The notes: generated by a model not told the origin, from the letters alone. DNA of 64,000 nt from Candidatus Rariloculaceae bacterium (GCA_045561025.1 JBJKYM010000034.1:27975-91974), one strand, 5' to 3'; counted from the first letter of the stretch, positions 33,200 to 50,230 are shown. Numbers and translations: made by a program.

Positions 33200-33432
33200 C
33201 TCTCGACGAAGAAAATACCTGTTGCTGCGGCTTCGCGACGGTCAAGTGCCTTCTCCTGTCCGACCCTAGAACTGACACCCTGAAACGGGGTTGGTATGCT
33301 GCACGCAGCATAATAAAGCCGAGCTGTATCTGCGTTAGCTGCTGCTACGCTCATACTGGATCATCCGGACAGACCTTATGGGGGTTCACTGTCAATAGTC
33401 TCTGGACAGCTTTTCTGTCGTTAGTTCTTCTC

Positions 33433-34887
33433 GTGCTGCCGGGCGGCTGGCTCGCCGCGCAGTCGCGGGCCGAAGCCGAGAATATGGCCTTGTTGGCGCA
33501 TCATCCGCTCGACGGTCGGCCGTCCTACACGCCGATGCCGCACCTCTACGGTGACCGCTGGATACTTTTCGCGGGTCATCACGCCGGCGAAGCGGTCAAC
33601 TCGCTGAACGGTGAGGTCGAGGGTAACGGTACCTGGGTACTTGATGTGACGGATCCGCGAAATCCGATCTATCTTTCATACATTCCCGCGCCGCCCTGGG
33701 AAGAGCATGGATCCATGTCTCTCGGGACCGGTGCGCAGCACGTTCAGGTTTGCGATGGCACAGAGCTGTCAGCAGGGGATCCTGACAAGGTTTATATGTT
33801 GCGCTCGCTTGGCAACGTGAGTCATGAGGTCTACGACGTTACCGACCCGAGTGCGCCGGAGTTTCTGGTTACTGTCGTCTGGACCGGCGATTCGCCACCG
33901 ATGGAGCCGTATGCCGACTTCTACGACACGAAAGGGACGCACAAGAACTGGTGGGATTGCGAGACCGGAGTCGCCTACGTCACTTCGAGTATTACCGGAT
34001 GGCGGAAGTGGCGAAATCTCCAGGCCTTCGATCTGAGTCGACCTGAGGAGCCAAAACATATCCGGGATTTCAGTCTGTCCGGCACAGAACCGACGGCATT
34101 AATACCTGCGGTTGAGGCACCAGGGGGCTACTCGGGGCTTCACCAGCCGACGATATTCGGCGATCGGATCTATCTTGCTTACGGTATGGATAGCGATGGC
34201 GTTATTCAGATTCTGGATCGAGACAAGTTCCTCAACGGAGATCCGAATTCGGATCAACCGTTCGCACCGACACCGGAAAACTTTCTCTATCCTGAGATTT
34301 CGCGGATCGACCTTCCAAGCTACTGGGGCGGTCATAGTGTGCATCCGATACTTGGAATGGAGATTCCCGACTACACCGATGACGAAACGCACAGCGTAAG
34401 AGATATTCTGGTCATCGTGTCCGAGGTCACAGCTAATGAGTGCGGGTACGCGCGCCATGCGACTTTTTTCGTCGACATCACCGAGGAAGACAAGCCGTTC
34501 GGGATTTCCTCGTTCCAGGTGCCTGAGGAAGAAGGGGGCTTCTGTAATCGCGGTGGAAGATTCGGGCCCCATGCCTCCAACGACTCGATGGAGCCCGTCT
34601 TCTACAAGAACACGCTGCTTCTTTCCTACTTCAATGCGGGCGTCCGGGCCGTCGATATTCGTGATCCGTTCAACCCGCGACAGATCGCGTACTACATTCC
34701 GGCAATTACGGAGAATACGGATCAACGCTGCGTTGAGGAAAATGGCGAGCGAGAATGTAAGGCCGCGATCCAGACGAACAACGTGAATTACGATGCGCGC
34801 GGAACTATCTATGCGCTGGATCGCGCGAATACCGGACTCCATATTCTGGAGCTGACGGGATCCGCGCGGGACGGAACCGGCCTGTAA
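33433..34887 (+). CDS. exported LVIVD-repeat beta-propeller-like protein (true start probably ATG 33378, out of frame by one G)
   Basis: Repeated xDVtDPxxP units (VLDVTDPRNP, VYDVTDPSAP, AFDLSRPEEP, AVDIRDPFNP, ..GLHILEL). The frame upstream of 33433 encodes a signal-peptide-like LWTAFLSLVLLVLPGGWLAAQS but contains no start codon. Confidence 0.7.
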   Translation: MLPGGWLAAQSRAEAENMALLAHHPLDGRPSYTPMPHLYGDRWILFAGHHAGEAVNSLNGEVEGNGTWVLDVTDPRNPIYLSYIPAPPWEEHGSMSLGTGAQHVQVCDGTELSAGDPDKVYMLRSLGNVSHEVYDVTDPSAPEFLVTVVWTGDSPPMEPYADFYDTKGTHKNWWDCETGVAYVTSSITGWRKWRNLQAFDLSRPEEPKHIRDFSLSGTEPTALIPAVEAPGGYSGLHQPTIFGDRIYLAYGMDSDGVIQILDRDKFLNGDPNSDQPFAPTPENFLYPEISRIDLPSYWGGHSVHPILGMEIPDYTDDETHSVRDILVIVSEVTANECGYARHATFFVDITEEDKPFGISSFQVPEEEGGFCNRGGRFGPHASNDSMEPVFYKNTLLLSYFNAGVRAVDIRDPFNPRQIAYYIPAITENTDQRCVEENGERECKAAIQTNNVNYDARGTIYALDRANTGLHILELTGSARDGTGL

Positions 34888-34928
34888 CCAGGCCGGACGA
34901 CAGTAATCAGGAAAACAAGGAAAACACC

Positions 34929-36215
34929 ATGACCAAACGATTGAATCACTACGCGACGACTTTCTGGAGCATCGTATTTACGTTACTGATGCTACCGCTT
35001 TCGCTGCAGGCGCAGACGTCCGCACCGTTCGCTGCGGTACCGGGTGAGCGCGGCGGCCAGGATATTACGGGCCCCTATGAAGTAGATCCCGACTGGCCGA
35101 AGGATATATCGACTCTTCCAGGACACGAGGGTTGGACCTGGGGAGCCGGGCAGAGCGTTTTCGCCGAGAGCCCCGATCGCGTTTACGTATTGCAGCGTGG
35201 TGAGTTACCCGTAGTTGAGCGACCGGAGCGACGCCCGCTTCATGATGTAGGCGACAGTATCTACTTCCCGATCGGCCGGTTGCCTTATCGCGATGCAACT
35301 GCATCGAGTTTACCCGCCAACGGTGGTGCAGGGAGCCTGGCTGAAACAGGCCTGGAGGTATGGGAGGCGAACGGTGGCCGAATGGGTGTCGACGCACGCT
35401 GGGAACACTGCATCCTCGTAATAAACGGTGAGGGTGAAATTATTGAGGAGTGGACGCAGTGGGACTCGATGATGCAGCGACCGCATTTCGTAGCGATCAA
35501 TCCCTACGATCCGGAGAAACATGTCTGGATAGTCGACGATCACAAGCACGTTATTCATAAGTTCACCAACGACGGTAGTGAGTTAGTCCAATCGATCGGT
35601 ACCTACGGTGAGCTGGGTGGTGACGAGACTCATTTCAATCGTCCGAGTTTCCTCGCCTGGTTTCCGGACAGCAGCTTCGTTGTGGCAGACGGCTATAACG
35701 GCAGCCGCGTCGTGAAGTTCGATGCGGACGGCAACTATTTGATGCAGTGGGGAGAGCCGGCCGAAAGAACGCGCAACGACCGGCGGCCAAACCATTTCTT
35801 CAATGTTCACGGCATTGCGATCGATCCGGAGACGAACAGGGTTTTCGTCAACGATCGTTACAATCAACGAGTTCAGATCTTCAGTGAAGATGGCGAGTAT
35901 CTTGATGAGTGGAGCATGGGTGAGCTGCCCTCCGATGTTCATCTCTTCAATATCTCGGCGGACGGTTACCTCTGGGCCGCCGATCGCGGTACGAACAAAA
36001 TTCTGAAGTACACACTGGACGGCGAATTTCTGTATTCCTGGGGTACCTGGGGTGATTTCCCGGGCGGAATGTGGGGCGTGCATGGAATGAGTGTCGACCA
36101 GGATGGAAACTTCTACATCGCTGAAGTCGACAACGGTGGCGTCCAGAAATACGTTCCGAGAGAGGGGGTAAATCCCGATTATCTCTACGGACAACCTGTC
36201 CGCGCCGCGTGGTAG
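34929..36215 (+). CDS. exported NHL-repeat six-bladed propeller, peptidyl-alpha-hydroxyglycine alpha-amidating lyase (PAL)-like, copy 1
   Basis: Signal peptide. NHL-type repeats (FVVADGYNGSRVVKFD.DGNYL, RVFVNDRYNQRVQIFSEDGEYL, LWAADRGTNKILKYTLDGEFL, FYIAEVDNGGVQKY). About two-thirds identical by eye to 39106-40368. Confidence 0.8.
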   Translation: MTKRLNHYATTFWSIVFTLLMLPLSLQAQTSAPFAAVPGERGGQDITGPYEVDPDWPKDISTLPGHEGWTWGAGQSVFAESPDRVYVLQRGELPVVERPERRPLHDVGDSIYFPIGRLPYRDATASSLPANGGAGSLAETGLEVWEANGGRMGVDARWEHCILVINGEGEIIEEWTQWDSMMQRPHFVAINPYDPEKHVWIVDDHKHVIHKFTNDGSELVQSIGTYGELGGDETHFNRPSFLAWFPDSSFVVADGYNGSRVVKFDADGNYLMQWGEPAERTRNDRRPNHFFNVHGIAIDPETNRVFVNDRYNQRVQIFSEDGEYLDEWSMGELPSDVHLFNISADGYLWAADRGTNKILKYTLDGEFLYSWGTWGDFPGGMWGVHGMSVDQDGNFYIAEVDNGGVQKYVPREGVNPDYLYGQPVRAAW

Positions 36216-36345
36216 TCGAGCGGTCATCCCGCTAGCACCTGACAGCCTGCGGAGCGGTCTCCATCCGGGGGGGGCTCCGGCACCTAAGTCCCCGTTTATT
36301 AAATAAATTTAACTCCGCTGATGAGTCATATTCGCTCCACAACCG

Positions 36346-36375
36346 TTGACGGCACAACGTTGGCACGGGGATACT
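36346..36375 (+). promoter_or_regulatory. candidate sigma70 promoter upstream of DUF6152 copy 1
   Basis: TTGACG (36346-36351), 18 nt, GATACT (36370-36375), within a 237-bp AT-richer gap. Sequence match only. Confidence 0.25.
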
Positions 36376-36452
36376 TGTGTGCATAAATAATTCAGGGAAT
36401 TCGGGGTGGCGAACAAAGTTTCTCGATCGACCGCGTCCGCTATGGAGATGGC

Positions 36453-36872
36453 ATGATCCGAGAGATGGTAAGAGTTTTTTTTCTTTCGACTTTGTTGTTC
36501 GCAGCGGGAAGCATAGCGTTCGCACACCATGGTGGAGCGGCCTATGACGGCAGTGCTAGCGCCACCGTGACGGGCGCCGTCACGAAGTTCGAATTCGTTA
36601 ATCCGCACGTCCTGATTTATATCGCCGTAACAGGTGATGACGGTGAAACCGTCGAGTGGTCCGGAGAGTTGACGAGCCCGAATCGTCTCGCGCGCATGGA
36701 ACGAGGATCCACGACGCCATGGAGTAAGGATATTCTCCAGCCAGGTGACGTCATTACGCTATCGGGAAATCCGGCAAGAACTGGAGCGCCGTCGTTGCGT
36801 CTGCAAACGGTAATCGATTCGAACGGCGAAGTGCTGGTCGGTGACGATGACGATGACGATGACGATGACTAA
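36453..36872 (+). CDS. DUF6152 family exported protein, copy 1, with 9-Asp C-terminal tail
   Basis: Signal peptide ending IAFA, then HHGGAAYD...VTGAVTKFEFVNPH...GD.ITLSG.P.R.G pattern as I recall for DUF6152. Ends in GDDDDDDDDD. Confidence 0.68.
   Translation: MIREMVRVFFLSTLLFAAGSIAFAHHGGAAYDGSASATVTGAVTKFEFVNPHVLIYIAVTGDDGETVEWSGELTSPNRLARMERGSTTPWSKDILQPGDVITLSGNPARTGAPSLRLQTVIDSNGEVLVGDDDDDDDDD
36843..36869 (+). repeat. (GACGAT)4-GAC simple-sequence repeat encoding poly-Asp
   Basis: gacgatgacgatgacgatgacgatgac lies immediately before the TAA at 36870. Confidence 0.95.
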
Positions 36873-36929
36873 GAAGTCGCCTGCTGTCTTGTGAATCGGG
36901 CTCGGCCCGAAACCTGAAGGACAACAACT

Positions 36930-37685
36930 ATGCTAACTCGTGTAATCGGTACGCTAGCTCTCGTATCGGGTTTGTTACTTGCTACTTCCGCCCTCCGAGC
37001 GCAGCCAGAAGGACATGGTGCTGATTTCTCGGGTGTATGGACGAATTTTTCGCCGGAGGCCACGCGATCCTTCGAGAACTCGGCCCTTCGGCCCGACCCG
37101 CCGCCGATGACCGAATGGGCACAGGAACGCTACGATCAGGCGAAGCCGACGTTCGGATCACGAAGCGTCCCGGTTCTCGAGACGAATGATCCCGTCTATG
37201 AGTGCTTTCGTCCGGGAACTCCCAGAATTTACATGCATCCGTTTCCAATGGAGATCGTCCAGACGCCGGGGCGGGTGCTAATGCTGTTTGAGTACGATCA
37301 TGCAGTGCGGCAGGTCTTTACTGACGGCCGCGAGCATCGTACCGATCTAGCGCCGATGTGGATGGGCGACTCCACGGGTCATTGGGAGGGCGACACGCTC
37401 GTCGTCGAAACGGTCAACTTCAACGACAAGACCTGGATAGATCGTGAGGGGGTACCTCACAGTGAGGAGCTGCGCGTTCTGGAACGCATCAGACTTGACG
37501 ATGACGGCAATCTGCTGATCGGGATCACGATTGAGGATCCGGTTGCCTTCACCGAAACATGGACAGGGCAGAGGCGCTACCGGCCGGTCGACTGGAATAT
37601 CGAAGAGTTCTCGTGTATGGATAATGTCAATTTCGAGGCGTTTGAAGACGAGATGCTCAACTACGATCCCGATGCGGCGAACTAG
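36930..37685 (+). CDS. exported protein of unknown family (paralog of 8641-9801)
   Basis: Signal peptide. Shared blocks include YECF.PGTPR, GHWEGDTLVVETVNFNDKTW and the C-terminal EF.C.DN. Confidence 0.6.
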   Translation: MLTRVIGTLALVSGLLLATSALRAQPEGHGADFSGVWTNFSPEATRSFENSALRPDPPPMTEWAQERYDQAKPTFGSRSVPVLETNDPVYECFRPGTPRIYMHPFPMEIVQTPGRVLMLFEYDHAVRQVFTDGREHRTDLAPMWMGDSTGHWEGDTLVVETVNFNDKTWIDREGVPHSEELRVLERIRLDDDGNLLIGITIEDPVAFTETWTGQRRYRPVDWNIEEFSCMDNVNFEAFEDEMLNYDPDAAN

Positions 37686-37825
37686 ATCGCCTGAAAGGAT
37701 TGAAAGCTATGCAGGGTGCGCGTATCTTGCATTAGGTAGCTACTAGTTACATCGAATAAATAGCCTATAAAAACAATAAGATATAGTTAAAATATAAAGT
37801 AAAAAATATGTTGGAGCCAGCCATC

Positions 37826-39085
37826 ATGAATCTCATTCCGTCCACCAACCATCCCAGGATTCTCATTGCCGCAGCGGCGAGTCTTGCGCTTGCGGGATGT
37901 GCTCCCGAGCCTGGGCCTCGGGCCTCCGTCGAGTCGGAGCCGGCCGCAGCGATGCCGATGCCAGCGGCCGCACCGTCGCCGGCAGCGGCTTCAGCCGAGG
38001 CTTCCGCTGCCTATCCGTCGGCCGAAATACCCGTCTTCACGACCGAGCATGTCGCGAGAAAAGGCTTCTATTACGCGGGTGGAGAATATGTCGGCGATCC
38101 GCCGATTATGGGTGGCCAGATGTACGTTGAGGTGTGGGAACCGGTTGAAGCCGTGCAGCCCTATCCACTCGTCATGTTCCACGGCAATGGTCAGACCGGG
38201 GTGGACTGGCTGCAGACGCCGGACGGCCGACCTGGCTGGGCGTACTACCTCGTTGAACAGGGCTATACGCTCTACATGGTCGACTACCCGGCGCGAGGGC
38301 GTTCTACCTACATCCCAGGCGGCGAGCATGGTGATCTGGGGATTCGTACCGTCGAGCAGTTGGAGGCGATCTGGACGAACGTCGGTGAGAAGGGCAACTT
38401 CCCGCTCAACGACAACCATACGCAATGGCCGGGCGGTGGACACCGCGGCGATCCGATCTTCGATAACTTTATCAAGACGCAGGTCCAGTTCGCGGGTCAG
38501 AGCACGACGATGGCGCGCTACGCGGCGATGGAGTTGCTGGACACAATTGGTCAGCCGGTCGTTCTGATTACCCATTCCCAGGGCGGTGGGGTTGGCTGGG
38601 GAGTCGCAGACGGCAGGCCGGATCTGGTCCGGGGAATCGTCACGATCGAACCGGGCGGACCGCAGATCGGTAATGTCAGTACGGCGGATGTTGCCTACTC
38701 AGGCCGGCCGGCGAATGCCTGGGGCCCTGTGAACTATCCGTTGACCTATGAGCCACCGGTTAGTGATCCGGAGGAACTCACGACCTATCTCGAAGCGGAG
38801 GGCGATCAGCCAGGCGAAGTACCCTGCTACCTCCAGGAAGAGCCTGCACGTCAGCTTGTGAATATGACGGAGATCCGTGTACTGGCATTGTCAGCGGATG
38901 GCACTTATCACCGGGTCTTCGACGGCTGTATTCCGAAATGGCTCAACCAGGCGGGCGTAGAGACAGATTTCGTCCGTTTGGAGGAAGTCGGCATCAGCGG
39001 CAATGGGCACATGATGATGCTCGAACTCAATAGCGACGACATTATCGAGTACATCGATAGTTGGATCCGAGAGAATATTCAGTAG
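37826..39085 (+). CDS. alpha/beta-hydrolase lipoprotein, copy 1
   Basis: Start at ATG 37826 gives the lipobox LALAGC. HGNGQTGVDWLQTPDGRPGWAYY, nucleophile elbow THSQGG, C-terminal GNGHMMMLE. Paralog of 40433-41581. Confidence 0.8.
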   Translation: MNLIPSTNHPRILIAAAASLALAGCAPEPGPRASVESEPAAAMPMPAAAPSPAAASAEASAAYPSAEIPVFTTEHVARKGFYYAGGEYVGDPPIMGGQMYVEVWEPVEAVQPYPLVMFHGNGQTGVDWLQTPDGRPGWAYYLVEQGYTLYMVDYPARGRSTYIPGGEHGDLGIRTVEQLEAIWTNVGEKGNFPLNDNHTQWPGGGHRGDPIFDNFIKTQVQFAGQSTTMARYAAMELLDTIGQPVVLITHSQGGGVGWGVADGRPDLVRGIVTIEPGGPQIGNVSTADVAYSGRPANAWGPVNYPLTYEPPVSDPEELTTYLEAEGDQPGEVPCYLQEEPARQLVNMTEIRVLALSADGTYHRVFDGCIPKWLNQAGVETDFVRLEEVGISGNGHMMMLELNSDDIIEYIDSWIRENIQ

Positions 39086-39105
39086 AAAAAGTTTGGAGAA
39101 CAGTT

Positions 39106-40368
39106 ATGCGTAGTCGTATACGAATGTTGGGTTGGTCAGCCGTTGGCGCCGCTGTCGTCGTGATCGCGAGCAATCAGATGGTCTCGGCGCAAAGCGCGGC
39201 CGTCGGCTTTTCAGCGGTACCGGGACAAAAGGGCGGCCAGGATATGTTCGGCCCTTATGACGTTGCTCCGAACTGGCCACAGGACCTCTCTGAGTTGCCA
39301 GGAAATGGGGCCTGGACGTATGGTGCGGGCCAGAGTGTATTCGCTGAGAGTCCTGATCGAATCTTTCTCCTGCACCGCGGCGAGTTGCCGAATATAGAGC
39401 GCCCCGGAGCAGAAGTTTCAGACCGTGGCCCCGCACTGTCTTTCCCGGTTGCGCAGCTACCGTTCCGTAACGCTTCGGTTGGTCCGCGTGCCAGTTTGCC
39501 GGGCGCACTAGACGGCGACGATACCGACCGCGGTATCCACGGCGTTGATCACAACTGGGCCCACTGCCTGGTTGTTGTTGACGGTGACGGAAATATCATT
39601 GAAGAGTGGACACAGTGGGACCATCTGTTTCGCCGTCCGCACTACGTAACCATCAATCCCTACGATCCCGAGAAGCACGTCTGGGTCGTCGATGACTTCC
39701 GGCACGCGATATTCAAGTTCACTAACGATGGTTCAAAGCTTGTTCAGACGATCGGTATCCCGAACGAGTCCGGCAACGATTCCACCCATTTTTTCCGACC
39801 GACGTTTATGGCATTTCTTCCTGATGCGATGTTCGTCGCGGACGGCTACGCCAATACGCGGGTGGTCAAGTTCGATCACGATGGAAACTATCTGATGACC
39901 TGGGGTGAGCCCGGTAATCCTCCGAACGAGACGCGTCCCGGCTACATGAACAATGTCCACGGCGTTGCAGTCGACCCGGAGACGAATCGCGTTTTCGTCA
40001 ATGATCGTGCGAATAACCGGGTTCAGGTTTTTACTGACGATGGCGAATTTCTGGATGAGTGGAGTTTCGGGCCCGAGCCGACGGATATTCATCTGTTCTA
40101 CATCGGTGCCGACAGAATCATGTGGGCTGCGGACCGTGCGACCAGCAAGATTCTGGGTTACGACCTCGACGGAAACTTCCTGTACTCCTGGGGTACGTTT
40201 GGTGACTTCCCCGGTGGCCAGTGGGGCGTGCACGGCATGAGCGTCGATCAGGACGGCAACTTCTATATTGCCGAGGTTGGTAACGGTCGTGTGCAGAAGT
40301 ACACGCCACGCGCCGGAGCGCGAGCTGAGACGATGGTTGGTAAGCCCGTCTACGCTGCCTGGGAGTAG
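39106..40368 (+). CDS. exported NHL-repeat PAL-like propeller, copy 2
   Basis: ATG 39106 has TGGAGA upstream (the track start 39061 overlaps the previous gene). Signal peptide. Long identical strings with copy 1 (SVFAESPDR, IIEEWTQWD, INPYDPEKHVW, ETNRVFVNDR, VHGMSVDQDGNFYIAEV). Confidence 0.8.
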   Translation: MRSRIRMLGWSAVGAAVVVIASNQMVSAQSAAVGFSAVPGQKGGQDMFGPYDVAPNWPQDLSELPGNGAWTYGAGQSVFAESPDRIFLLHRGELPNIERPGAEVSDRGPALSFPVAQLPFRNASVGPRASLPGALDGDDTDRGIHGVDHNWAHCLVVVDGDGNIIEEWTQWDHLFRRPHYVTINPYDPEKHVWVVDDFRHAIFKFTNDGSKLVQTIGIPNESGNDSTHFFRPTFMAFLPDAMFVADGYANTRVVKFDHDGNYLMTWGEPGNPPNETRPGYMNNVHGVAVDPETNRVFVNDRANNRVQVFTDDGEFLDEWSFGPEPTDIHLFYIGADRIMWAADRATSKILGYDLDGNFLYSWGTFGDFPGGQWGVHGMSVDQDGNFYIAEVGNGRVQKYTPRAGARAETMVGKPVYAAWE

Positions 40369-40432
40369 TAAACGAGTTTTTAGCTGCGCGATCGCCTGCG
40401 GAGCCAGGTGACCCGCGTACTCGGAGAGTGTG

Positions 40433-41581: not shown

Positions 41582-41667
41582 CTGCAGGCGCAGGTCTCGC
41601 CGCTGGGGGAACGGCGGGGAGAATCAGCCTCGATGTATGGCGTAAGTGATTGGAGGAGATGCAGCAG

Positions 41668-42075
41668 ATGCAGCAGATGCGGTATATGAAATTAGGAAAC
41701 TCATTGGTTGTTCTGGTGTCGATATTTTCGATGGCCTTGTCCGCCTGGGCGCATCATGGAGACGCCGGACGTTACAACGACGAGGTCACGACAGTAGTCG
41801 GTGTCGTCGCGCAGTGGCGCCTGATTAATCCGCATTCAGAGTTGATCCTCGATGTTGAGGACGAATCGGGAAGACTCGTTCGCTGGCGTGGAGAACTCGC
41901 TAACCCGACCGCCCTGGCCAATCGTCATGGCTGGGATCAGGAAACATTTCAGCCGGGCGATAGAATCTCGATGACGGGCAGGGCGCTGAAGAACGGTTCG
42001 CCCGCGATGACGTTGTCGGAGGGTGCTGTACTCGTAGACGCTGACTCCGGTGAAGAGCTCTACCGCGGGAATTAG
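41668..42075 (+). CDS. DUF6152 family exported protein, copy 2
   Basis: Several in-frame ATGs (41659, 41668, 41677, 41686) follow GGAGGAG, so the start is uncertain. Signal peptide ending SAWA, then HHGDAGRY..VVAQWRLINPH..GDRISMTG. Confidence 0.65.
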   Translation: MQQMRYMKLGNSLVVLVSIFSMALSAWAHHGDAGRYNDEVTTVVGVVAQWRLINPHSELILDVEDESGRLVRWRGELANPTALANRHGWDQETFQPGDRISMTGRALKNGSPAMTLSEGAVLVDADSGEELYRGN

Positions 42076-42087
42076 AGAGTAAAGATC

Positions 42088-43920
42088 ATGACAAGTACCG
42101 GCTGCTGCTTTCGAATAGTTCTGCCTGTCATTTGCGCGATCGGCTTAACTGCATGCTCGGCGCCACCGCCTGCACCGTCGCTGTCGATGGGTTTTGGCTT
42201 AAAGGAGATTCAGTTCAGCTGGCCTGTCGTGGAGGAGGCTGATCATTATCGCTTGCTGGCCAGTCTCGATGGCTCGGCGGTGTTCTCGGCCGTTGGCGGA
42301 AATCTCTCAGCTATGACGACGAGTACAACCGTGCCGGTCGCAGTGCATCTCTATCCCTGGGAGACAGCCCGCTACGTTCTGGAGGCATGTAACGCTGACG
42401 GCTGTACCCGCTCGGCTGAGATCAGTCCGATAGACGGCATCCTGGATACCATCGGTTACGTTAAGGCGTCGAACTCAGACGTTGACGATCAGTTCGGGGG
42501 CGGCAGCGTCATTTACGGTCTCTCCGCGGCCATTAGTCGCGACGGCAATACGATGGCTGTCACGTCGATCTTCGAAGATAGCGCGGCGACCGGAATCGAT
42601 GGCGATCAGACTGATAACTCGGCGCTGGACGCCGGATCCGTCTATGTATTTCAGCGCGACGACGACGGCTGGGCTCAACAGGCCTATGTCAAAGCTTCGA
42701 ATGCCGAATCCAGCGACCAGTTCGGCTACTCCGTGGCATTAAGCGGTGACGGCGACACGCTCGCCGTTGGTGCAAATCTTGAAGCCAGTAGCGCAACCGG
42801 AATAAACGGTGACCAAAGCGACAACTCGGCGCCTGGCGCCGGCGCCGTCTATGTCTTCGCACGTGCGAGTGGCGAGTGGAGCCAACAGGCCTATGTAAAG
42901 GCGTCGAACTCCGACGGCGGTGATGTATTCGGCTATCAGGTTGCTCTGAACTTTGACGGCGACACGCTGGTGGTGACAGCTCAGGGTGAGGATAGCGCCT
43001 CTCCCGGCATCGACCTTGATCAGATCAACAACGATGCCGGTGGCGCCGGCGCAGCGTATGTATTCACGCGTGATGGCGGCACATGGTCGCAGCAGTCGTA
43101 TCTCAAGTCGGCCAATCCGGAGGTGAATGATCTCTTCGGCAGTTCCGTCGCTATGAGCGATGACGGCAACACGATACTTGTGGGTGCGCTCGATGAGGAC
43201 GGCGGGCAGGCGACCATCAACGGCGATGAATCGGACAACTCCGCGCGCGGCTCTGGTGCTGCATATGTCTTCGTCCGCAACGGTAGTCGATGGTCGCAAC
43301 AAGGCTATATCAAGGGTTCGAATACGCAGGCTGCGGACGCGTTCGGCGCGACGGTCGCGATGAGCGCTGACGGTAATACGCTGGCCGTCGGAGCGCCCGA
43401 CGAAAACAACACGTCGACCGGCGCCCATGCCGATCTCGGGCACCGCGTGGGCTTCGATCCGCGGACTGATCACTCTTTCGGCTCGGCCTACATATTCGCC
43501 AGGCAGAATGGGAACTGGACGGAGCAGGCCTATATCAAGCCTTCTCATCTCGGGCAGTTCGATCAGTTCGGTACCCGGGTCGCGCTGAGTGGCGACGGCA
43601 ATATCCTTGCCGTAGGCGTCCCTCTTGAAGACAGTCCGGCAGTCGGATTGAACGGTAGTCGCGAGAACGATGAGTCCGGTGGGACCGAGTTCGGCGCCGT
43701 CTATCTATACACGCGCGAGAATGGCCGCTGGTCTGATCACAACTATGTGAAGGCTCCCAATGCCGGTGTCTACGACGAGTTTGGATCCGTTATCGCGCTC
43801 AATGCAGATGGGTCGACAATGATCGTCGGTGCTCGTTTCGAAGATTCTGCAGCGACGGGTGTCGATGGGGATCAGGGCCACGAGTATGCCAGAGACGCCG
43901 GGGCGATCTACGTTTTCTAG
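42088..43920 (+). CDS. lipoprotein with N-terminal Ig/FN3-like region and seven FG-GAP/integrin-alpha-like repeats
   Basis: Lipobox GLTAC. Seven ~70-aa repeats: Y[VIL]KasN....D.FG.sVAlS.DGnTLAVGA..EDS.ATGi.GDq.DNSa..aGAvYVF.R....W.QQa. Confidence 0.75.
   Translation: MTSTGCCFRIVLPVICAIGLTACSAPPPAPSLSMGFGLKEIQFSWPVVEEADHYRLLASLDGSAVFSAVGGNLSAMTTSTTVPVAVHLYPWETARYVLEACNADGCTRSAEISPIDGILDTIGYVKASNSDVDDQFGGGSVIYGLSAAISRDGNTMAVTSIFEDSAATGIDGDQTDNSALDAGSVYVFQRDDDGWAQQAYVKASNAESSDQFGYSVALSGDGDTLAVGANLEASSATGINGDQSDNSAPGAGAVYVFARASGEWSQQAYVKASNSDGGDVFGYQVALNFDGDTLVVTAQGEDSASPGIDLDQINNDAGGAGAAYVFTRDGGTWSQQSYLKSANPEVNDLFGSSVAMSDDGNTILVGALDEDGGQATINGDESDNSARGSGAAYVFVRNGSRWSQQGYIKGSNTQAADAFGATVAMSADGNTLAVGAPDENNTSTGAHADLGHRVGFDPRTDHSFGSAYIFARQNGNWTEQAYIKPSHLGQFDQFGTRVALSGDGNILAVGVPLEDSPAVGLNGSRENDESGGTEFGAVYLYTRENGRWSDHNYVKAPNAGVYDEFGSVIALNADGSTMIVGARFEDSAATGVDGDQGHEYARDAGAIYVF
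42457..43917 (+). repeat. seven in-frame tandem coding repeats (~200-230 nt each)
   Basis: Periodicity is seen in the translation; repeat 1 starts at Tyr124 (nt 42457). These are divergent protein repeats, not identical DNA repeats. Confidence 0.8.
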
Positions 43921-44117
43921 TCGGCAGTGACAGCGGCTCTCTCGAGGAGCAGCTTGCCGATCTGGGCTTCGAGCGGTTCCGCCTGGTTATCGGAAAATTC
44001 GAACTCCTCGCCGTGCTCAGGAATCACGCGTGGCGAACCTCGTTCGCTGCCCGATAGCAGGCTGATCCACTCTTTACTTTCGCCGACTGCGACGCGCATC
44101 CGCCGAATTCTGGTCAT
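43917..44117 (-). CDS. hypothetical small protein
   Basis: 66 aa from the internal ATG 44117 (MTRIRRMRVAVGESKEW..). CTAG stop overlap with the convergent FG-GAP gene. No family recognised. Confidence 0.3.
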   Translation of the reverse strand: MTRIRRMRVAVGESKEWISLLSGSERGSPRVIPEHGEEFEFSDNQAEPLEAQIGKLLLERAAVTAD

Positions 44118-44334
44118 CGATTCGTCCCCGGTACTAGGCTGCTGATCGATTATCTTGGCCAGGGCGGAGCGCTGCTGTGATGTATTTTGCAAGACCGTGA
44201 GAGAGTCTTGCGGTTGCGACGGGTCGAGTTCAGATCAACTATCTGGATCTATGCCAGGCTGCTACACTTCTTTCACCGGCATCCGATTTATTGGTGGGAG
44301 GACATCAGGAGCCGGCAATACAGGCAGAAGTTGG

Positions 44335-44670
44335 ATGCGAAAACAGGAAAACACCCGGCCGATAATTATTCGTTACGTCATCGCCTTCATTGGGGCGGTC
44401 TCCATAACGATAGGGTTGCTCTTGTTCATGAACGATCTGATCAGCCGGTTCTTCGAGCGGGATGCGATTCAATACTTCGCGATCACCGACTATATCCCCG
44501 CACCGGATCGCGGCCGGCAATTGCCTGACGCACCGCCGGCACCGTCCGCTGCCCCCGACGCGCCGGCGCTTGAGCTCGCGCCTGAAGAGGAGATCGTGAT
44601 GGACGGTCCGGTTATCGAGCCCGACCTGACGCTTCCGGCAACCGAACAGGCACCGAATCTCGACGAGTAA
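44335..44670 (+). CDS. membrane-anchored Pro/Ala-rich protein (TonB N-terminus-like, no C-terminal domain)
   Basis: From ATG 44335: one TM helix (YVIAFIGAVSITIGLLLFM), then PAPDRGRQLPDAPPAPSAAPDAPALELAPEEE. The upstream part of the track ORF does not look coding. Confidence 0.4.
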   Translation: MRKQENTRPIIIRYVIAFIGAVSITIGLLLFMNDLISRFFERDAIQYFAITDYIPAPDRGRQLPDAPPAPSAAPDAPALELAPEEEIVMDGPVIEPDLTLPATEQAPNLDE

Positions 44671-44679
44671 CTACTTCTT

Positions 44680-45198
44680 TCAGGCTGAGAGATTGCCGTC
44701 CGCGCCAAGCTCCAGCCCGGTTTCTCGCGCTCGGGAGAGCACCGATTTCGCCCAGTCAACATGACCGGCGTCGTCGCCGCCCAGAATCGCCATCAGATAG
44801 GCATGCTCATCGCTGATGTTTCGAAAGCCTCTCATCACGCCGACCGGTACCGAGACGAGATCCATGGGTCCGAGTTCAGTTTCGCCGTCGCCGTCCTCGC
44901 CCCAGTAAACAATCCATCGACCGGTTAATGCCACGAACACCTCGACGGTAGGGTGGGAGTGCAGCGCCGCTCCTTTTTGCGGGTCGGCCCCTATATAGGT
45001 GACGTTGAACCCTTCAACTGCGGTGACGGAAGGTTCGAGCTCCGGGTCTTCCGTTACGCCACGACCGATTACATTGTAGATATCCCGGACGTGCTCCGGG
45101 ATGCGAGTATCGACGAAAGCCTGCGGGCTGGCACGGAGTTCGCTGAACCGTGCAGTTCGTGCTTCCATTTCTTCGACCAGTTCGGCTTTGTTGGGCAT
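44680..45198 (-). CDS. cupin domain protein
   Basis: From ATG 45198 (GAGGT RBS). ..GAALHSHPTVEVFVALTGRWIVYWG....LGPMDLVSVPVGVMRGFRN fits the cupin two-motif pattern. Confidence 0.7.
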   Translation of the reverse strand: MPNKAELVEEMEARTARFSELRASPQAFVDTRIPEHVRDIYNVIGRGVTEDPELEPSVTAVEGFNVTYIGADPQKGAALHSHPTVEVFVALTGRWIVYWGEDGDGETELGPMDLVSVPVGVMRGFRNISDEHAYLMAILGGDDAGHVDWAKSVLSRARETGLELGADGNLSA

Positions 45199-45775
45199 CG
45201 TCGTGACCTCGGGATAATTACTTTGACCTGAATCGTACCTACTTGGCCGTCCCATTTCCTCTCGACTCGTCTTCCCTTCGGTGCGCTCGGTCTGCCACTA
45301 TTTGAGCTGCAGCCAATTGCGGGTCGACGTCCCTCCCTCATAACACGTAGCGGGAACCATGCGTAAATTACACTTAGCGTTAGCCACGAGAGATATGGAT
45401 CGGTCAATCCTCGACTAAAGTACTCAACTGAAGACTGAGCCTTGTGTCGTTGTTTCCGGCGAGTACGCCTTGTGGCGTACTGAGATCGTCAATCTGTCGG
45501 TCAGGCTCGATCCCGACTGCGAGCCAGGTGCGTTGAGGCATCTTGGCTGGGAAGATCCTGAAGCAGCCGAATTCTCAACGAGTACCGACGCGAACGGAAT
45601 CGTCTGGGAACACTTCTCGGCACAGCAGCAGGCCGATGAGATAGAAGAATTTTTTCCCGGCACCGACTACCGCCCGCCAGATTCGTAGCGTGTAGAGCTG
45701 ACGGGACTGGGACAATCTCACGCGTTTGCGTAAACTCGGTATATAGAGACGGCGTCGCGAAATATTGGGGACGAT

Positions 45776-47053
45776 ATGATCGGTAAGACTTCTGCAGTTG
45801 TGATTGTTCGTAGATCTCTTGTTTGTCTCGGGGTTGCGATTGTCGCGTTCTACGGCACGGCGCAGGCCCAGCCGTCTCTGACCTACTTCGCGGATCCGAG
45901 CTGGCCGAAGACTCTGCCGAATAACTGGAAGCTCGGCGGTATCTCCGGCCTGACGATCGACGCTGACGACAACATCTGGGTCCATAATCGTCCGAACGAT
46001 CTCGCCGATATGGAGCTCCTGGCCGAGCTCTCGCCGCCGGTCTCGGAATGCTGTGTTCGCGCACCTTCGATGATTCAACTCGATGGGTCCGGGAATGTAC
46101 TCGCATCATTCGATGCGCCACAGGGTCACGGCATGGATGTCGATAACGACGGCTTTATCTATCTCGGGCAAGATACCGTTCGCAAATACAACTCGGTTAC
46201 TGGAGATCTCGTGGCGGAGGTTGAGCGAACGCCAGAAAGGGAAGGTGGGGGACAGGTCGGCCTGCCGCCACCGGCTGAAATTATCCTGGGCAAGGGCTCT
46301 CTGGAGCACGCTGACGTGTTTATGCCGTCGACGCCCAGGGAACCAGCCGACGTCGCGCGTCGAGCAGCGGCAGCCGTCGAGTTCCGCGCGAAGTATCCTC
46401 CGGATACGCCGATGATCGTCGGCGGTCTGGAAGAAATTCGCATTATCGAAGCGGACAATGAAATATTTGTCGCCGATAACTATCTCGGTGGCCGGGTACT
46501 GGTCTTCGATCTCGAAACGTTCGAATTCAAGCGTGGCTGGGGTGCGTATGGAAAGCCGCTGGCTGAGATCAGTACGGACGATGCAGATCATAGATACACA
46601 GCTAACGGTCCTATGCCGAGAGACTTCGCCGGTCACCTGACGCTGAACATCTCCAACGACGGGCTGGTCTATGCGGCAGATCGAAGAGCGAATCGAATCC
46701 ACGTGACGACGAAGGACGGTCAGTTTCTGAAGGAGTTCGTGCTCGCACCCAGTACCGGCGGTGGTGGATCAGCCGGTGGAGTGGCGTTTTCTGCCGATGA
46801 AGATCAGCGTTATCTTTTTATCTCGGACCGGATGAATGGTAAGGTCTGGTTCCTGAATCGCGACGACGGTGAGGTTGTCGGCTCCGTCGGGAGCATGGGC
46901 GAGAACGGCGGGCAATTCTTCGGCCTGCATATGATTGCAGTCGACTCGCAGGGCTTCATTTATACCGGTGAAGTCGATTCTTTTCGCGTGCAGAGATTCG
47001 TACCGGCTTACAGTCTCAGAGGCCGTCTCCTTCAGCAGCTGGCCGAGCTATAA
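45776..47053 (+). CDS. exported NHL-repeat beta-propeller protein (third, divergent)
   Basis: Signal peptide. NHL-like units (IFVADNYLGGRVLVFDLETF, LVYAADRRANRIHVTTKDGQFL, YLFISDRMNGKVWFLNRDDGEV, FIYTGEVDSFRVQRF). Confidence 0.7.
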   Translation: MIGKTSAVVIVRRSLVCLGVAIVAFYGTAQAQPSLTYFADPSWPKTLPNNWKLGGISGLTIDADDNIWVHNRPNDLADMELLAELSPPVSECCVRAPSMIQLDGSGNVLASFDAPQGHGMDVDNDGFIYLGQDTVRKYNSVTGDLVAEVERTPEREGGGQVGLPPPAEIILGKGSLEHADVFMPSTPREPADVARRAAAAVEFRAKYPPDTPMIVGGLEEIRIIEADNEIFVADNYLGGRVLVFDLETFEFKRGWGAYGKPLAEISTDDADHRYTANGPMPRDFAGHLTLNISNDGLVYAADRRANRIHVTTKDGQFLKEFVLAPSTGGGGSAGGVAFSADEDQRYLFISDRMNGKVWFLNRDDGEVVGSVGSMGENGGQFFGLHMIAVDSQGFIYTGEVDSFRVQRFVPAYSLRGRLLQQLAEL

Positions 47054-47105
47054 TTTGAGATCAACGAATTGGCGCGCTTGTTGAAGCGCCCTGGTGGAGA
47101 ACATA

Positions 47106-47879
47106 GTGAGAAAAGAATTCCTGTCTGTCACCCTGCTGCTGACGATAGCAGCATGCTCGGCAGCGCACGCACAGCATGGATTGGAAGGTGGAACACCCAT
47201 GACGTTCTTCGTTGCCAGCAAGCCAATCGGTGATGGCGGCAACCTCGGCGGTCTGGCCGGAGCAGACGCACACTGCCAGGCTCTCGCGGAGAATGTGGGT
47301 GCCGGAGACCGAACGTGGCAGGCCTACTTAAGCACGCAGGATCGCCCCGGGGTTCCCGCCGTGAACGCCAGGGATCGCATCGGCTCAGGACCGTGGCACA
47401 ACTTTCACGGTGTATTGATCGCTCGGGATGTTGAACATCTGCAAGGCGACACGATTGAGCTCGCCAGAATGGGCAATAATTTGAATAAGCAGACGGGGCT
47501 GACCGAGAAAGGGCAGATCGTTCCCGGACTGAACGACTACAAGGATTCGCGGGATCGCGACTGGGAGTATGTCCAGACGACGCCCTACAGCAATCGTCAC
47601 GAGATGCTGACCGGCTCACAACTCAACGGAACCGCTTTCCCGCCGGATATGGATTACACCTGTAACAACTGGACCAGTAACGAAGATCCTGATTTCGAAG
47701 CGAACGGACGCCGAATGGGTGCCGCGGTCGACAAGCCGAACGTCCAGATCGGTTTTCCGGACCGCAATGGTGGCGGCGATGGCTCGTGGAACTCGTCCCA
47801 CGGCACACGTGGCTGTAGTCAGACCGCGCTCGTGATGACGCACGGTGTCGGCATGTTCTACTGCTTCGCAATCGATTGA
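47106..47879 (+). CDS. exported DUF1554 / endostatin-like (C-type-lectin-fold) protein, copy 1
   Basis: GTG 47106 with GGTGGAG 6 nt upstream; possible lipobox IAAC. FFVASKPIGDGGNLGGLAGADAHCQALA...W.AYLST...ARDRIG.GPW...TCNNWTS...GC....FYCFAID parallels the endostatin/DUF1554 layout (from memory). Confidence 0.6.
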   Translation: MRKEFLSVTLLLTIAACSAAHAQHGLEGGTPMTFFVASKPIGDGGNLGGLAGADAHCQALAENVGAGDRTWQAYLSTQDRPGVPAVNARDRIGSGPWHNFHGVLIARDVEHLQGDTIELARMGNNLNKQTGLTEKGQIVPGLNDYKDSRDRDWEYVQTTPYSNRHEMLTGSQLNGTAFPPDMDYTCNNWTSNEDPDFEANGRRMGAAVDKPNVQIGFPDRNGGGDGSWNSSHGTRGCSQTALVMTHGVGMFYCFAID

Positions 47880-47887
47880 GCGGGACT

Positions 47888-48619
47888 ATGCGAGTAACAA
47901 TGAAAATTAGATCTATTGGACTGATATTGGCACTGGCTTTCTGTGGTGCCGCCTTCGCGCAGGACCCAGGATTGCCGGATTCGGAAGATATTCCATCTAG
48001 CCTGATGACGTTTTTCGTGACGAGCGAGCCGATAGGCGATGGCGGCAACCTCGGCGGACTGGAAGGTGCCGACGCGCACTGCCAGTTGCTGGCTGCTGCG
48101 GTCGGCGCGGGAGATAAAACCTGGCGTGCCTACCTCAGCACGCAGGCGAGACCGGGACAGCCGGCGGTGAACGCGCGGGATCGTATCGGTGAGGGGCCGT
48201 GGTATCACTCGAAGGCGAAAATTCTGGACTACCTGCAACGTCGACTAAACAGGCCGATCATCTCGTCGGAAATTCACGGCGACACGCTTGAAGAAGCGCA
48301 GCGTGGAAGTAATCTGACGAAAGAGTTCGCACTTACGGAACATGGCGAGATCGTTAACGGTATCGGCGACCCTCTTCCGAGGCGTCATTCCATTCTGGCC
48401 GGGTCCCGGCCAGATGGTCGTGCATTCACCGGAAGCGAAGACCGTACCTGCAACAACTGGACGAGCAACAGTGAGGGGGCGGCGCAGGTAGGTCACTCTG
48501 ACCGCGTCGGTAACGGCAATATCTCCTGGAACTCGTCGCACACGACGACCGGCTGCAGCCAGGAAGAGCTGGTCAGCTGGGGCGGGGTTGGGCTGTTTTA
48601 CTGCTTCGCGATTGACTAG
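47888..48619 (+). CDS. exported DUF1554 / endostatin-like protein, copy 2
   Basis: Tandem paralog with the same Cys framework (ADAHCQ, TCNNWTS, GCS, FYCFAID). The start could be ATG 47888 or 47900. Confidence 0.6.
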   Translation: MRVTMKIRSIGLILALAFCGAAFAQDPGLPDSEDIPSSLMTFFVTSEPIGDGGNLGGLEGADAHCQLLAAAVGAGDKTWRAYLSTQARPGQPAVNARDRIGEGPWYHSKAKILDYLQRRLNRPIISSEIHGDTLEEAQRGSNLTKEFALTEHGEIVNGIGDPLPRRHSILAGSRPDGRAFTGSEDRTCNNWTSNSEGAAQVGHSDRVGNGNISWNSSHTTTGCSQEELVSWGGVGLFYCFAID

Positions 48620-48623
48620 TTCT

Positions 48624-50201
48624 CTAGCGACGGCGCTTGGGCGCAGCTCGGGCAACGAAGTGTTTAACCCCGGGTTGGTCGTCACCGCGGTGGAAAGCGT
48701 CCGCCACGCGTTTGAACTCCATGTCTTCAACTGTCAGTCGCTCGCGTCGCCGCAGATGGTCGAGCCAGCTTGGGTCAACGAAGTGCTCAACGTAGACGCG
48801 CTCGTTGTCGGTGTCCTGGTATAGACCCCATGCAACCGATCCGTTTCGCAGTCGCATGCGTCGAATGTCCCGCATGGCCGCTTCGAACTGTGTTTGTTCT
48901 TCCGGGTCGATCAGATATTCAACATGGACCATGACGGGACCTTGCGGGCCTTCGGACGAGAGTGGGGCGATCGATTCCGGAATCGAAGAAGCCTCCGATT
49001 GATCTAACGGGGTATGTTCTCCCAGTTTCCAGCGGGCCGCGATCAGGTTCGCGACGATACCGGAGACGAGGGCAAGACTTAGCGCGGATGTTGTATCGGT
49101 CGCAGATGCAATCCAGCCCCAGAATGCGCTGCCGATCGCCATGCTGCCCATAAAGGCGGCGATAAAAATAGCCAGGCCCCGCGCCCGCACCCAGGCAGGA
49201 AGTGTAAGCTGCGCCGATATCTGCAGAGTCGACACGACGCTGAGCCATGAAGCGCCGGCGACGAACATGACGATGACCAATGGAATCACGAGACGAATGT
49301 ACGCGAGGCCGAGTACCGCACTTGCCCCCGCGATGACGCCGAAAGCCATGAGTCGGTTCGCGGATATTTTTGAACGCAACCGGGTCAGTGCGAGCCCGGC
49401 CACTACGGCACCGCTGCCCATCGAGGTGACTAACAGGCCATAGGTTTGCGGACCGCCGCCGACTTCCTCTCTGACGATCAGAGGCAGGAAGGCGAACACG
49501 GGGCTCATCATCGTGAAGAATGCGACTGCGCGAATCAGAACAATCTGCAGAGGCGGTGACTGCCGCGCATACTGATACCCCGTACGCAGCGCGCCAAGAA
49601 AGCGTTCCGAGGGCAAAGTACTCCTGGGCTGCGTACTTCGGTAGCCGTACATGACAATGAATATCCCTGCGAAACTGACGGCATTCAGCAGGAATACCGG
49701 CCCGGGCCCGGTTAACGCGATTAAGCCGCCTGCAACGGCGGGTCCGACCGCACGCGTAATATTCATGCCGATGCTGTGAACGGTCACGGCAGCCGTCAAC
49801 TGATCGCGTGGAACGAGATCCGGGATCATAGCGACGAACGCAGGCATCATCATCGCGGTCCCCGTTCCCAGGGCGAACGTGAAGAGTATTAAGGACCATG
49901 GCGTCGTATGACCCGTCACGGTCATCACGCCGATGCTCGCTGCCATTGCGGTCATCCACACCACGGTGGCCAGGATGTACAGGCGCCGATCGACGATATC
50001 TGCCAGGGCACCTGCGGGGAGCGTAAACAGGAATCCCGGCAGAACGACGGAGACCTGGACCAGCGACACCATGAAAGGGTCGGGTGCCAGGTCCGTCATT
50101 AGCCAGCCTGCGCTGACATCGTGCATCCACGTGCCGAGATTCGATACCAGGTTCGCTAACCAGATATTGCGAAACAGCGCTATTTTTAGTGGATTCGGCA
50201 C
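48624..50201 (-). CDS. MFS transporter (MFS_3/EntS-like) with C-terminal ~100-aa soluble extension
   Basis: About 12 TM helices followed by MVHVEYLIDPEEQTQFEAAMRDIRRMRLRNGSVAWGLYQDTDNERVYVEHF.., a ferredoxin-like/ABM-type tail. Confidence 0.85.
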   Translation of the reverse strand: MPNPLKIALFRNIWLANLVSNLGTWMHDVSAGWLMTDLAPDPFMVSLVQVSVVLPGFLFTLPAGALADIVDRRLYILATVVWMTAMAASIGVMTVTGHTTPWSLILFTFALGTGTAMMMPAFVAMIPDLVPRDQLTAAVTVHSIGMNITRAVGPAVAGGLIALTGPGPVFLLNAVSFAGIFIVMYGYRSTQPRSTLPSERFLGALRTGYQYARQSPPLQIVLIRAVAFFTMMSPVFAFLPLIVREEVGGGPQTYGLLVTSMGSGAVVAGLALTRLRSKISANRLMAFGVIAGASAVLGLAYIRLVIPLVIVMFVAGASWLSVVSTLQISAQLTLPAWVRARGLAIFIAAFMGSMAIGSAFWGWIASATDTTSALSLALVSGIVANLIAARWKLGEHTPLDQSEASSIPESIAPLSSEGPQGPVMVHVEYLIDPEEQTQFEAAMRDIRRMRLRNGSVAWGLYQDTDNERVYVEHFVDPSWLDHLRRRERLTVEDMEFKRVADAFHRGDDQPGVKHFVARAAPKRRR

Positions 50202-50230
50202 GGCTCTGCTTCACTCGAATCGTGGTGAGA

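Follow-up and report, generated by a model that had tools for sequence, protein, structure and literature searches.

What fills the long interval that separates purA from rnr in an uncultured gammaproteobacterial family, and how did it come to lie there? We addressed this question for Candidatus Rariloculaceae, a family of the order Candidatus Rariloculales within the Gammaproteobacteria, using a stretch of 64,000 nucleotides from one of its genomes (GCA_045561025.1, JBJKYM010000034.1:27975-91974). This stretch is referred to below as the window, and positions are counted from its first letter. In the window, hflC, purA and the gene for an exported MltD-like transglycosylase (mltD) are followed by a block of 16 genes, namely G1 to G15 and an open reading frame (ORF) for a protein of 66 aa. 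On the far side of the block lie tRNA-Leu(CAG), on the minus strand, and rnr, rlmB, rpsF, rpsR, rplI and dnaB. An initial annotation, made from the sequence of the window, had described the block as a lineage-specific insertion of mostly exported proteins into conserved synteny. With moderate confidence, we conclude that the interval is probably a lineage-specific expansion of the purA/tRNA-Leu/rnr junction, in which an old, vertically inherited core of exported-enzyme genes is combined with two variable slots, and that it is not a mobile element. The lineage-specific character claimed earlier was thus retained, while the single insertion gave way to a mosaic of an old core and two slots.

An expanded junction with a conserved core

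The proximity of purA and rnr in Escherichia coli, on which the idea of an insertion was built, is real: strain K-12 has the order hfq-hflXKC-yjeT-purA-nsrR-rnr-rlmB. As an outgroup sample for purA-rnr adjacency we used the relatives listed by a PurA scan of metagenomes, which were 59-73% identical to the window in this protein. The outgroup gammaproteobacteria L024, L053, L077 and L095 show purA, a minus-strand tRNA-Leu(CAG) gene and rnr as direct neighbours, purA being separated from the tRNA gene by 56-1245 bp. Since the corresponding distance in the window is ∼19.6 kb, the interval represents a lineage-specific expansion. The tRNA-Leu(CAG) gene itself is found at the same position in relatives and outgroups.

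Both edges of the expanded interval could be placed. Among ten contigs with an identical RpsR (Rnr ∼80%), the DNA homology to the window begins at position 50231 in eight, while the remaining two contigs themselves start inside the tRNA gene. Position 50231 is the 3′ end of tRNA-Leu(CAG), and it forms a sharp right edge of the variable region, exactly on the side of the tRNA gene where the block had been said to end. The left boundary, previously set directly after purA, had to be moved. The MltD-like gene adjoins purA in L137, L138, L140, L144 and a JGI contig, and it is part of the family-wide conserved flank, outside the variable block.

Relatives were found by looking up homologues of PurA, G3 and G4 in their contigs. 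In four other genomes of the family, G3 to G9 follow purA-mltD in the same order, as far as the contigs reach. In GCA_905168785.1 (contig L137; PurA 86% identical), mltD is followed by a GGDEF gene, G1 and G3 to G7, the contig ending inside G7. In GCA_045561055.1 (L140; PurA 81%), G3 to G9 come immediately after mltD, and rnr is located on a separate large contig, L016. In GCA_024638465.1, where L144 and L017 belong to one contig, the order is mltD, G1, G3 to G9, an acyl-CoA dehydrogenase gene, a G10-like gene, a cyclase gene, tRNA-Leu and rnr, and purA and rnr are ∼20.5 kb apart. The fourth genome is represented by a 91-kb JGI contig (PurA 84%), which carries mltD, FMN_bind, PepSY_TM, TctC, G3 to G9, the 66-aa ORF, G10, the cupin gene G11, NUDIX and rnr in an interval of 15.5 kb. 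This is the one contig in which the interval is fully readable, and it is here that the core beyond G9 (the 66-aa ORF, G10 and G11) is seen, with G11 at the same position and on the same strand as in the window.

The order, strand and tight spacing of G3 to G9 are kept in all five genomes seen. Core orthologues are 69-88% identical at the protein level (72-77% for G9) and 68-78% at the DNA level, where the flanks show 71-73%, and their identities equal those of the flanking PurA, HflC and MltD. Orthologues of G8 are present in L140, L144 and the JGI contig. Because the divergence of the core matches that of the flanking genes, the core was inherited with the chromosome. The conserved core comprises G3 to G11, at 36.45-45.26 kb. 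Carriage of the block at the same locus by relatives, which the initial annotation had itself named as evidence against an insertion, was therefore found for about half of it, namely for G3 to G9 in four genomes, with the slots variable. Furthermore, G3 to G9 are co-directional and only 12-140 bp apart, some pairs being separated by 12-64 bp, and for this reason they probably form one or two operons.

Native composition and two variable slots

The composition of the block had been judged to resemble that of the rest of the chromosome, and our GC, k-mer and codon profiles could indeed not be distinguished from those of the remainder of the window. GC content, tetranucleotides, GC at third codon positions (GC3) and codon usage are the same inside and outside the block (Mann-Whitney p = 0.58 and 0.97). 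The block has a GC3 of 0.645, compared with 0.639 outside, and a codon distance of 0.088 versus 0.092, and its tetranucleotide z-score does not exceed 1.4. Because of this native composition, any acquisition would have to be old. The only atypical stretch in the window is located elsewhere, at 9800-13000, with a GC content of 0.49-0.52 and tetranucleotide z-scores of up to 2.9. Apart from a DUF427 gene, this stretch contains nothing but small ORFs, and it ends at tRNA-Glu(CTC) (12931-13006). Judged by its composition, it is more likely than the purA-rnr block to represent foreign or decaying DNA.

Signs of mobility were not detected. Pfam scans revealed no integrase, recombinase or transposase domain in any ORF of 33.2-50.2 kb. 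The 28-nt 3′ end of the tRNA gene occurs once in the window when up to three mismatches are allowed, so that there is no att copy, and no att-like direct repeats were found to flank the block. One feature of tRNA islands is present, as the edge at 50231 coincides with a tRNA 3′ end. The block is, moreover, not present or absent as one unit, as G1, G2 and G12 to G15 vary independently of the core. A defence island or a phage origin was considered and rejected, as the block encodes exported enzymes and lacks mobility genes.

Two slots of the block are variable. The left slot extends from mltD to G3 and holds G1 and G2 in the window; in the relatives it contains GGDEF and G1 (L137), G1 alone (L144), FMN_bind-PepSY_TM-TctC (JGI contig) or nothing (L140). 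G2 was seen in the window genome only, being absent from L137, L140, L144 and the JGI contig. The right slot, which abuts the 3′ end of the tRNA gene, holds G12 to G15 in the window, NUDIX in the JGI contig, and the acyl-CoA dehydrogenase and cyclase genes in L017/L144. G12, G14 and G15 were found only in the window genome, G12 not being at the locus in relatives, and a G13 homologue (74% identical) adjoins tRNA-Leu/rnr of L019. Gene turnover at this site is also evident between the contigs L005 and L008, which are 90-93% identical and differ by ∼4 kb at the 3′ end of the tRNA gene (5956-5984 in L005 versus 1894-5986 in L008). The additional DNA lies exactly between the tRNA-Leu(CAG) 3′ end and a Lactamase_B_3 gene and comprises TatA, a small ORF and genes of the cytochrome c7-like, NrfD and 4Fe-4S types. 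In the slot next to the tRNA gene, a hot spot, genes are gained and lost rapidly. A second indel of the conserved neighbourhood is found between dnaB and radA, where a cassette encoding an FHA protein, a PP2C phosphatase and a Ser/Thr kinase (57366-61137, minus strand) is present in the window and in L008-type relatives and absent in L005-type relatives.

Predicted products of the block

The genes were identified from an ORF listing together with Pfam and NCBIfam scans of the window (Table 1), and the inventory of 16 genes and their families proved essentially right. In agreement with the initial annotation, Pfam scans found no regulator, TonB receptor, ABC system or mobility gene among the block genes. 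A TonB-dependent receptor, a SusD-like protein and an ABC importer were likewise not found in the block by Pfam, which leaves it without an uptake-locus signature, and an Rfam scan of the region returned the tRNA only.

Table 1. Features of the purA-rnr interval in window coordinates, and ORFs on other contigs that match both DUF6152 and G4 profiles
Feature	Position	Strand	Evidence and remarks
purA	29314-30612	+	Pfam Adenylsucc_synt, 598 bits; product 100% identical to an NCBI protein from a Candidatus Rariloculaceae metagenome-assembled genome; left anchor of the ancestral synteny
mltD, MltD-like lytic transglycosylase	30830-33199	+	Pfam SLT and 3 LysM; signal peptide
G1, beta-propeller of LVIVD-type family	33433-34887 as called; 33378 with out-of-frame ATG	+	left slot
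G2, PAL-like NHL propeller	34929-36215	+	Pfam NHL; left slot
G3, DUF6152 (PF19649), exported	36453-36872	+	Pfam, 76.7 bits; first core gene
G4, exported 251-aa protein with HWEGDTLVVET	36930-37685	+	no Pfam hit
G5, alpha/beta-hydrolase lipoprotein	37826-39085	+	lipobox LAGC; motifs HSQGG and GNGHMMM
G6, PAL-like NHL propeller	39106-40368	+	Pfam NHL; best PDB match 3FVZ
G7, exported esterase-713/SulE-like serine hydrolase	40433-41581	+	PDB 1QLW match
G8, second DUF6152	41668-42075	+	Pfam, 66.4 bits; ends 12 bp upstream of G9
G9, FG-GAP_2 propeller lipoprotein	42088-43920	+	Pfam, 134.7 bits, 6 repeats; lipobox LTAC
66-aa ORF	43917-44117	-	no signal peptide; conserved
G10, 111 aa	44335-44670	+	N-terminal membrane anchor, proline-rich tail
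G11, cytoplasmic cupin	44680-45198	-	Pfam Cupin_2; last core gene
G12, divergent NHL propeller	45776-47053	+	right slot; 4/5 PAL residues
G13, DUF1554-like, exported	47094-47879	+	right slot; lipobox IAAC
G14, DUF1554-like, exported	47876-48619	+	right slot
G15, MFS_3 (EntS-like) exporter	48624-50201	-	Pfam MFS_3, 535.6 bits; right slot
tRNA-Leu(CAG)	50231-50317	-	ARAGORN and Rfam
rnr (RNase R)	50475-52664	+	Pfam RNB, CSD2, OB_RNB, S1; right anchor of the ancestral synteny
DUF6152-G4 dual-match ORFs, contig L016	384-1403; 3237-4337; 4298-5398; 7319-8368	+; -; -; +	hidden Markov model matches
DUF6152-G4 dual-match ORFs, contig L141	10835-11914; 11987-13075	+; -	hidden Markov model matches

The two small ORFs that had been called doubtful, the 66-aa ORF and G10, are both conserved in relatives and are probably real genes. 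The former was called in L001, L144 and the JGI contig, its translation being clearly conserved between the window and L144. G10 is conserved with 47-51% identity in L017/L144, L020 and the JGI contig; it lacks a TonB C-terminal domain and is merely membrane-anchored and proline-rich. Several genes of the block are paralogues of each other, namely G2 and G6 (61% identical), G5 and G7 (56%), G13 and G14 (49%), and the two DUF6152 genes G3 and G8.

Export was assessed with a home-made test combining N-terminal charge, maximum 10-residue hydropathy, AXA sites and lipoboxes, and nine cytoplasmic proteins served as controls. The hydropathy maximum was 2.4-3.0 for G2 to G9 and G12 to G14, versus at most 1.62 in the controls, and a lipobox was recognized in G5, G9 and G13. 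The cupin G11 and the 66-aa ORF displayed no export signal. Twelve exported products had been counted initially; eleven have a clear signal peptide or lipobox, and the twelfth, G1, qualifies only after correction of a 1-base frameshift. As called, G1 starts at a GTG (33433) and has no signal peptide. A signal peptide is encoded upstream, but a GGGGG run (33380-33384) puts the ATG at 33378 out of frame with it, and deletion of one G from this run restores MGFTVNSLWTAFLSLVLLVLPGGWLAAQSRAEA. The orthologue in L137 has a normal signal peptide, and an independent Logan contig (L145) shows the same GGGGG run. In the same window, dnaB (55951-57347) is split by a frameshift near 56442-56445, residues 1-164 and 166-464 of a relative's DnaB aligning in different frames. 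This suggests that the assembly carries indel errors, and an assembly error in G1 is plausible because dnaB is frameshifted as well. At a larger scale the assembly of the block is reproducible, since positions 36842-47685 are matched at 100% identity by four independent contigs from Logan metagenomes. All four Logan contigs with G4 break within ∼30 bp of a GAT/GAC repeat (36839-36872) that encodes nine Asp residues at the C-terminus of G3, a run that the orthologues lack. This suggests an assembly break at low-complexity sequence.

Active-site residues of known enzymes are found in the NHL propellers and the hydrolases. The best PDB match of G6, and by alignment of G2, is rat PAL (3FVZ; E 5.7e-22), covering G6 residues 156-319. 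Residues H585, Y654, H690, R706 and H786 of PAL (chain offset 491) are all conserved in G2, G6 and three G6 orthologues. In the structure of PAL published in 2009, His585, His690 and His786 are reportedly the zinc ligands, Tyr654 the catalytic residue and Arg706 the substrate-binding residue. The substrate of PAL, a zinc-dependent enzyme built as a six-bladed propeller, is peptidyl-alpha-hydroxyglycine, in which it cuts the C(alpha)-N bond (PMC6529398). A gene for a PHM-like copper monooxygenase was not found in the block by Pfam. G5 and G7 match Pfam Abhydrolase_1 and Abhydrolase_6, and the two sequence motifs listed for G5 in Table 1 are shared by G7. G7 aligns with esterase 713 (1QLW; E 1.5e-19) over residues 60-243 and 329-380 of 382, or ∼60% of the protein, with both the nucleophile motif HSQ and the C-terminal His in register. 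PDB matches of G5 and G7, with E-values from 1e-19 to 1e-12, include a set of 370-aa alpha/beta-hydrolases of the SulE type, which are herbicide esterases (e.g. 7Y0L).

For the remaining propellers and the DUF1554-like proteins the resemblances are more distant. G1 had been labelled an LVIVD protein. The window copy itself gave no match to Pfam LVIVD (PF08309), even at E ≤5, but 7 of the 23 full-length members of its family do match, with a best E-value of 3.4e-12. Orthologues of G1 are found in L137 (86% identical) and L144 (510 aa). A G1 family profile built from 1695 representative clusters gave a collinear match to the haloalkylphosphorus hydrolase Sb-PTE (PDB 5HRM; E 2.8e-14). G9 is above the threshold for FG-GAP_2 (PF14312) in six stretches, its DNA showing 207-nt periodic repeats (families D2 and D6). 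The earlier term DUF1554-like was well chosen for G13 and G14, as their scores against DUF1554 (PF07588), 24.0 and 23.6 bits, are below the gathering score of 27.5. The NCBIfam LenA/B score was 25 bits at a cut-off of 300, the resemblance being only local and N-terminal, and G13 showed weak matches to the Leptospira LenA/B endostatin-like family and to endostatin. Neither G9 nor G13 had a significant match among PDB sequences.

The DUF6152 proteins and G4 represent an uncharacterised part of the core. G3 and G8 both pass the DUF6152 gathering threshold of 27 bits. In an alignment of 46 homologues, cleavage after A-x-A leaves a near-invariant His-His-Gly at the mature N-terminus, and an Asn-Pro-His (NPH) motif is invariant. 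The AlphaFold model of G3 (pLDDT 77) shows an OB fold with generic structural neighbours only. G4 has at least 1545 homologues, all unnamed, and belongs to no Pfam or NCBIfam family. Mean column identity is 55-61% for the DUF6152 and G4 families (55% for G4), and Cys92, Cys229, His103, His124, His136, His177 and many Asp and Glu residues of G4 are invariant. Its model (pLDDT 78) is a calycin/FABP-like barrel, with CRABP, FABP and NanoLuc as the best fold matches. Searches of PDB sequences with the G3 and G4 family profiles found nothing, and neither did a literature search for DUF6152, Rariloculus and Rariloculales. Outside the block, at 8641-9801 on the plus strand, lies a gene for an exported protein of 386 aa with the sequence HWEGETLVVET, which is distantly paralogous to G4 (31% identity across 159 aa, E 1e-17).

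There is good genomic evidence that the DUF6152 and G4 proteins may work together. In the distant complete genomes L141-L143 a DUF6152 gene is located directly upstream of a G4 homologue, with different neighbours otherwise. Among all loci compared, six ORFs match the hidden Markov models of both families; they can be regarded as fusions, because tblastn places the DUF6152 part N-terminally and the G4-like part C-terminally (L016). In L005, the DUF6152 and G4-like genes overlap by 4 bp. It is this combination of adjacency, fusion and overlap that argues for a joint action. DUF6152 may also have a more general accessory function, since genes of this family are positioned 10-12 bp upstream of MBL-fold genes (L005) as well as of an FG-GAP gene (G8-G9). 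Conceivably, DUF6152 marks a two-part extracytoplasmic module, in which a subunit with a His-His N-terminus and an NPH OB fold delivers a metal or ligand to a translationally coupled partner, so that G3-G4 would be a new periplasmic metalloenzyme or metallochaperone; we offer this as a speculative idea that is more likely wrong than right by a wide measure. That the partner would be the G4 family here, and an FG-GAP propeller or MBL-fold hydrolase elsewhere, is equally tentative.

Competing explanations and known systems

The organization that we favour would have three layers: the core G3 to G11, passed on vertically; the left slot between mltD and G3; and the right slot at the 3′ end of the tRNA gene, with quick gene turnover. 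The core products would be exported via Sec and signal peptidase I or, in the case of G5 and G9, as lipoproteins. Judging from their homologies, G5 and G7 may be Ser/His carboxylesterases of the esterase-713/SulE type, while G6 and its duplicate G2 may act as zinc-dependent PAL-like lyases that cut the N-C(alpha) bond of an alpha-hydroxyglycine-type amide. G3, with its OB fold and N-terminal His-His, and G4, with its calycin-like barrel, could form a two-subunit binding or catalytic module, and a corresponding accessory function for G9, the FG-GAP lipoprotein, could be fulfilled by G8. Judging from these distant homologies, the core set would be an extracytoplasmic hydrolytic toolkit that most likely acts on organic matter containing esters or amides, either at the cell surface or in the periplasm.

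Several observations weigh against this organization or parts of it. The family members L138 and L139 (PurA 85% identical) lack the core, unrelated genes following mltD, and in GCA_045561055.1 the core and rnr are on different large contigs; because of these cases, loss or rearrangement cannot be fully separated from a later origin within the family without a species tree. The operon structure is read from gene spacing, pattern scans of the block for promoters and terminators having given matches at chance level. Neither G4 nor DUF6152 has a characterised relative, their fold matches are of a generic kind (TM ∼0.35-0.6 for G4, ordinary OB folds for G3), and the models of G3 and G4 are of only moderate confidence. 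The signal peptides were judged by our own heuristic. Finally, the proposed toolkit is deduced from homology to enzymes with other substrates, and no substrate, transporter or regulator is linked to it.

Could the whole 17 kb instead stem from a single horizontal acquisition at the tRNA-Leu(CAG) 3′ end, followed by amelioration to host composition? Such an island would account for a variable region that stops exactly at the 3′ end of the tRNA gene, for the short purA-tRNA gap of the outgroups and for tRNA-side content that differs between near-identical relatives. It would not account for a core that four other genomes carry at this very site and that has diverged like its flanks, nor for the mosaic pattern in which different genes are common to different relatives, and neither an integrase, a transposase and an att repeat nor a foreign composition or codon usage speaks for it. 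For the core, this explanation is largely refuted already, and for the block as a whole we consider it very improbable. A surface adhesion or host-interaction set, in which the repeat-rich and eukaryote-like products, namely the propellers of the NHL and FG-GAP types and the endostatin-like DUF1554 proteins, would be adhesins or matrix binders instead of enzymes, also seems unlikely to us. The FG-GAP_2 repeats, the weak matches of G13 to the Leptospira LenA/B outer-membrane family and to endostatin, and the three predicted lipoproteins would fit such a set. However, the PAL catalytic residues are fully kept in G2 and G6, as are the esterase nucleophile and His in G5 and G7; the Len and DUF1554 scores are under the family thresholds, and G13 and G14 are located in a variable slot outside the core.

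The block might, on the other hand, be no functional unit at all, having arisen as a permissive gap that was filled by duplication and local rearrangement of families abundant in the lineage. The same families do occur elsewhere, as illustrated by the G4 paralogue upstream of the block and by DUF6152/G4-like pairs or fusions upstream of rnr in L005 and L016. The duplicates within the block (G2/G6, G5/G7, G3/G8 and G13/G14) and the variability of both slots point in the same direction. Mere accumulation is hard to reconcile with the order, strand and spacing of G3 to G9 in five genomes at 69-88% protein identity, with gene pairs as close as 12-64 bp, and with a G3-G4 linkage that is kept in distant genomes and even as fusions, and we regard it as rather doubtful. 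Together, the single island, the adhesin set and random accumulation are each less likely than a lineage-specific expansion with a vertically inherited core and two variable slots.

This expansion shows how the conserved purA/tRNA-Leu/rnr junction became a long-lived home of a secreted-enzyme cluster in an uncultured gammaproteobacterial family, with an edge at the tRNA gene that is still turning over. It reveals no new kind of mobile element or mechanism. The putative bacterial PAL-like lyases, with their seemingly complete active site, are candidates for biochemistry. The most promising lead is the pair of DUF6152 and calycin-like proteins, which is linked, sometimes fused, strongly conserved and uncharacterised.

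Compared with known enzymes, G2 and G6 resemble PAL in being NHL beta-propellers with all five active-site residues. They differ in that they are bacterial, predicted to be periplasmic and not linked to a PHM monooxygenase gene, and in that the significant alignment spans ∼165 residues. G5 and G7 share with esterase 713 and SulE the H-S-Q-x-G nucleophile motif and the histidine of a C-terminal GNxHMMM, G5 being set apart by its lipobox and a proline/alanine-rich linker. G1 resembles the beta-propeller phosphotriesterase Sb-PTE in its collinear profile match and in length (484-510 aa versus 504 aa), but it is only distantly related, belongs to a variable slot and has a frameshifted start here.

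Compared with known genomic arrangements, the block shares features with two. tRNA-associated genomic islands arise when an integrase mediates insertion at a tRNA 3′ end, and the block is like them in having its edge at such an end and in content there that differs between close relatives. It differs in lacking an integrase, an att duplication and any compositional signal, and in its vertically inherited core. It is also like the plasticity zones of housekeeping neighbourhoods, where lineage-specific genes of native composition are found within a conserved gene order, without mobility genes. An example is the yjfI-ulaF stretch of E. coli K-12, a variable slot between rlmB and rpsF in the neighbourhood mutL-miaA-hfq-hflXKC-purA-rnr-rlmB-rpsF-rpsR-rplI-dnaB. 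In contrast to such zones, the block occupies the slot from purA-mltD to tRNA-Leu/rnr, encodes nearly exclusively exported proteins and has its fast-turnover end at the 3′ end of a tRNA gene.

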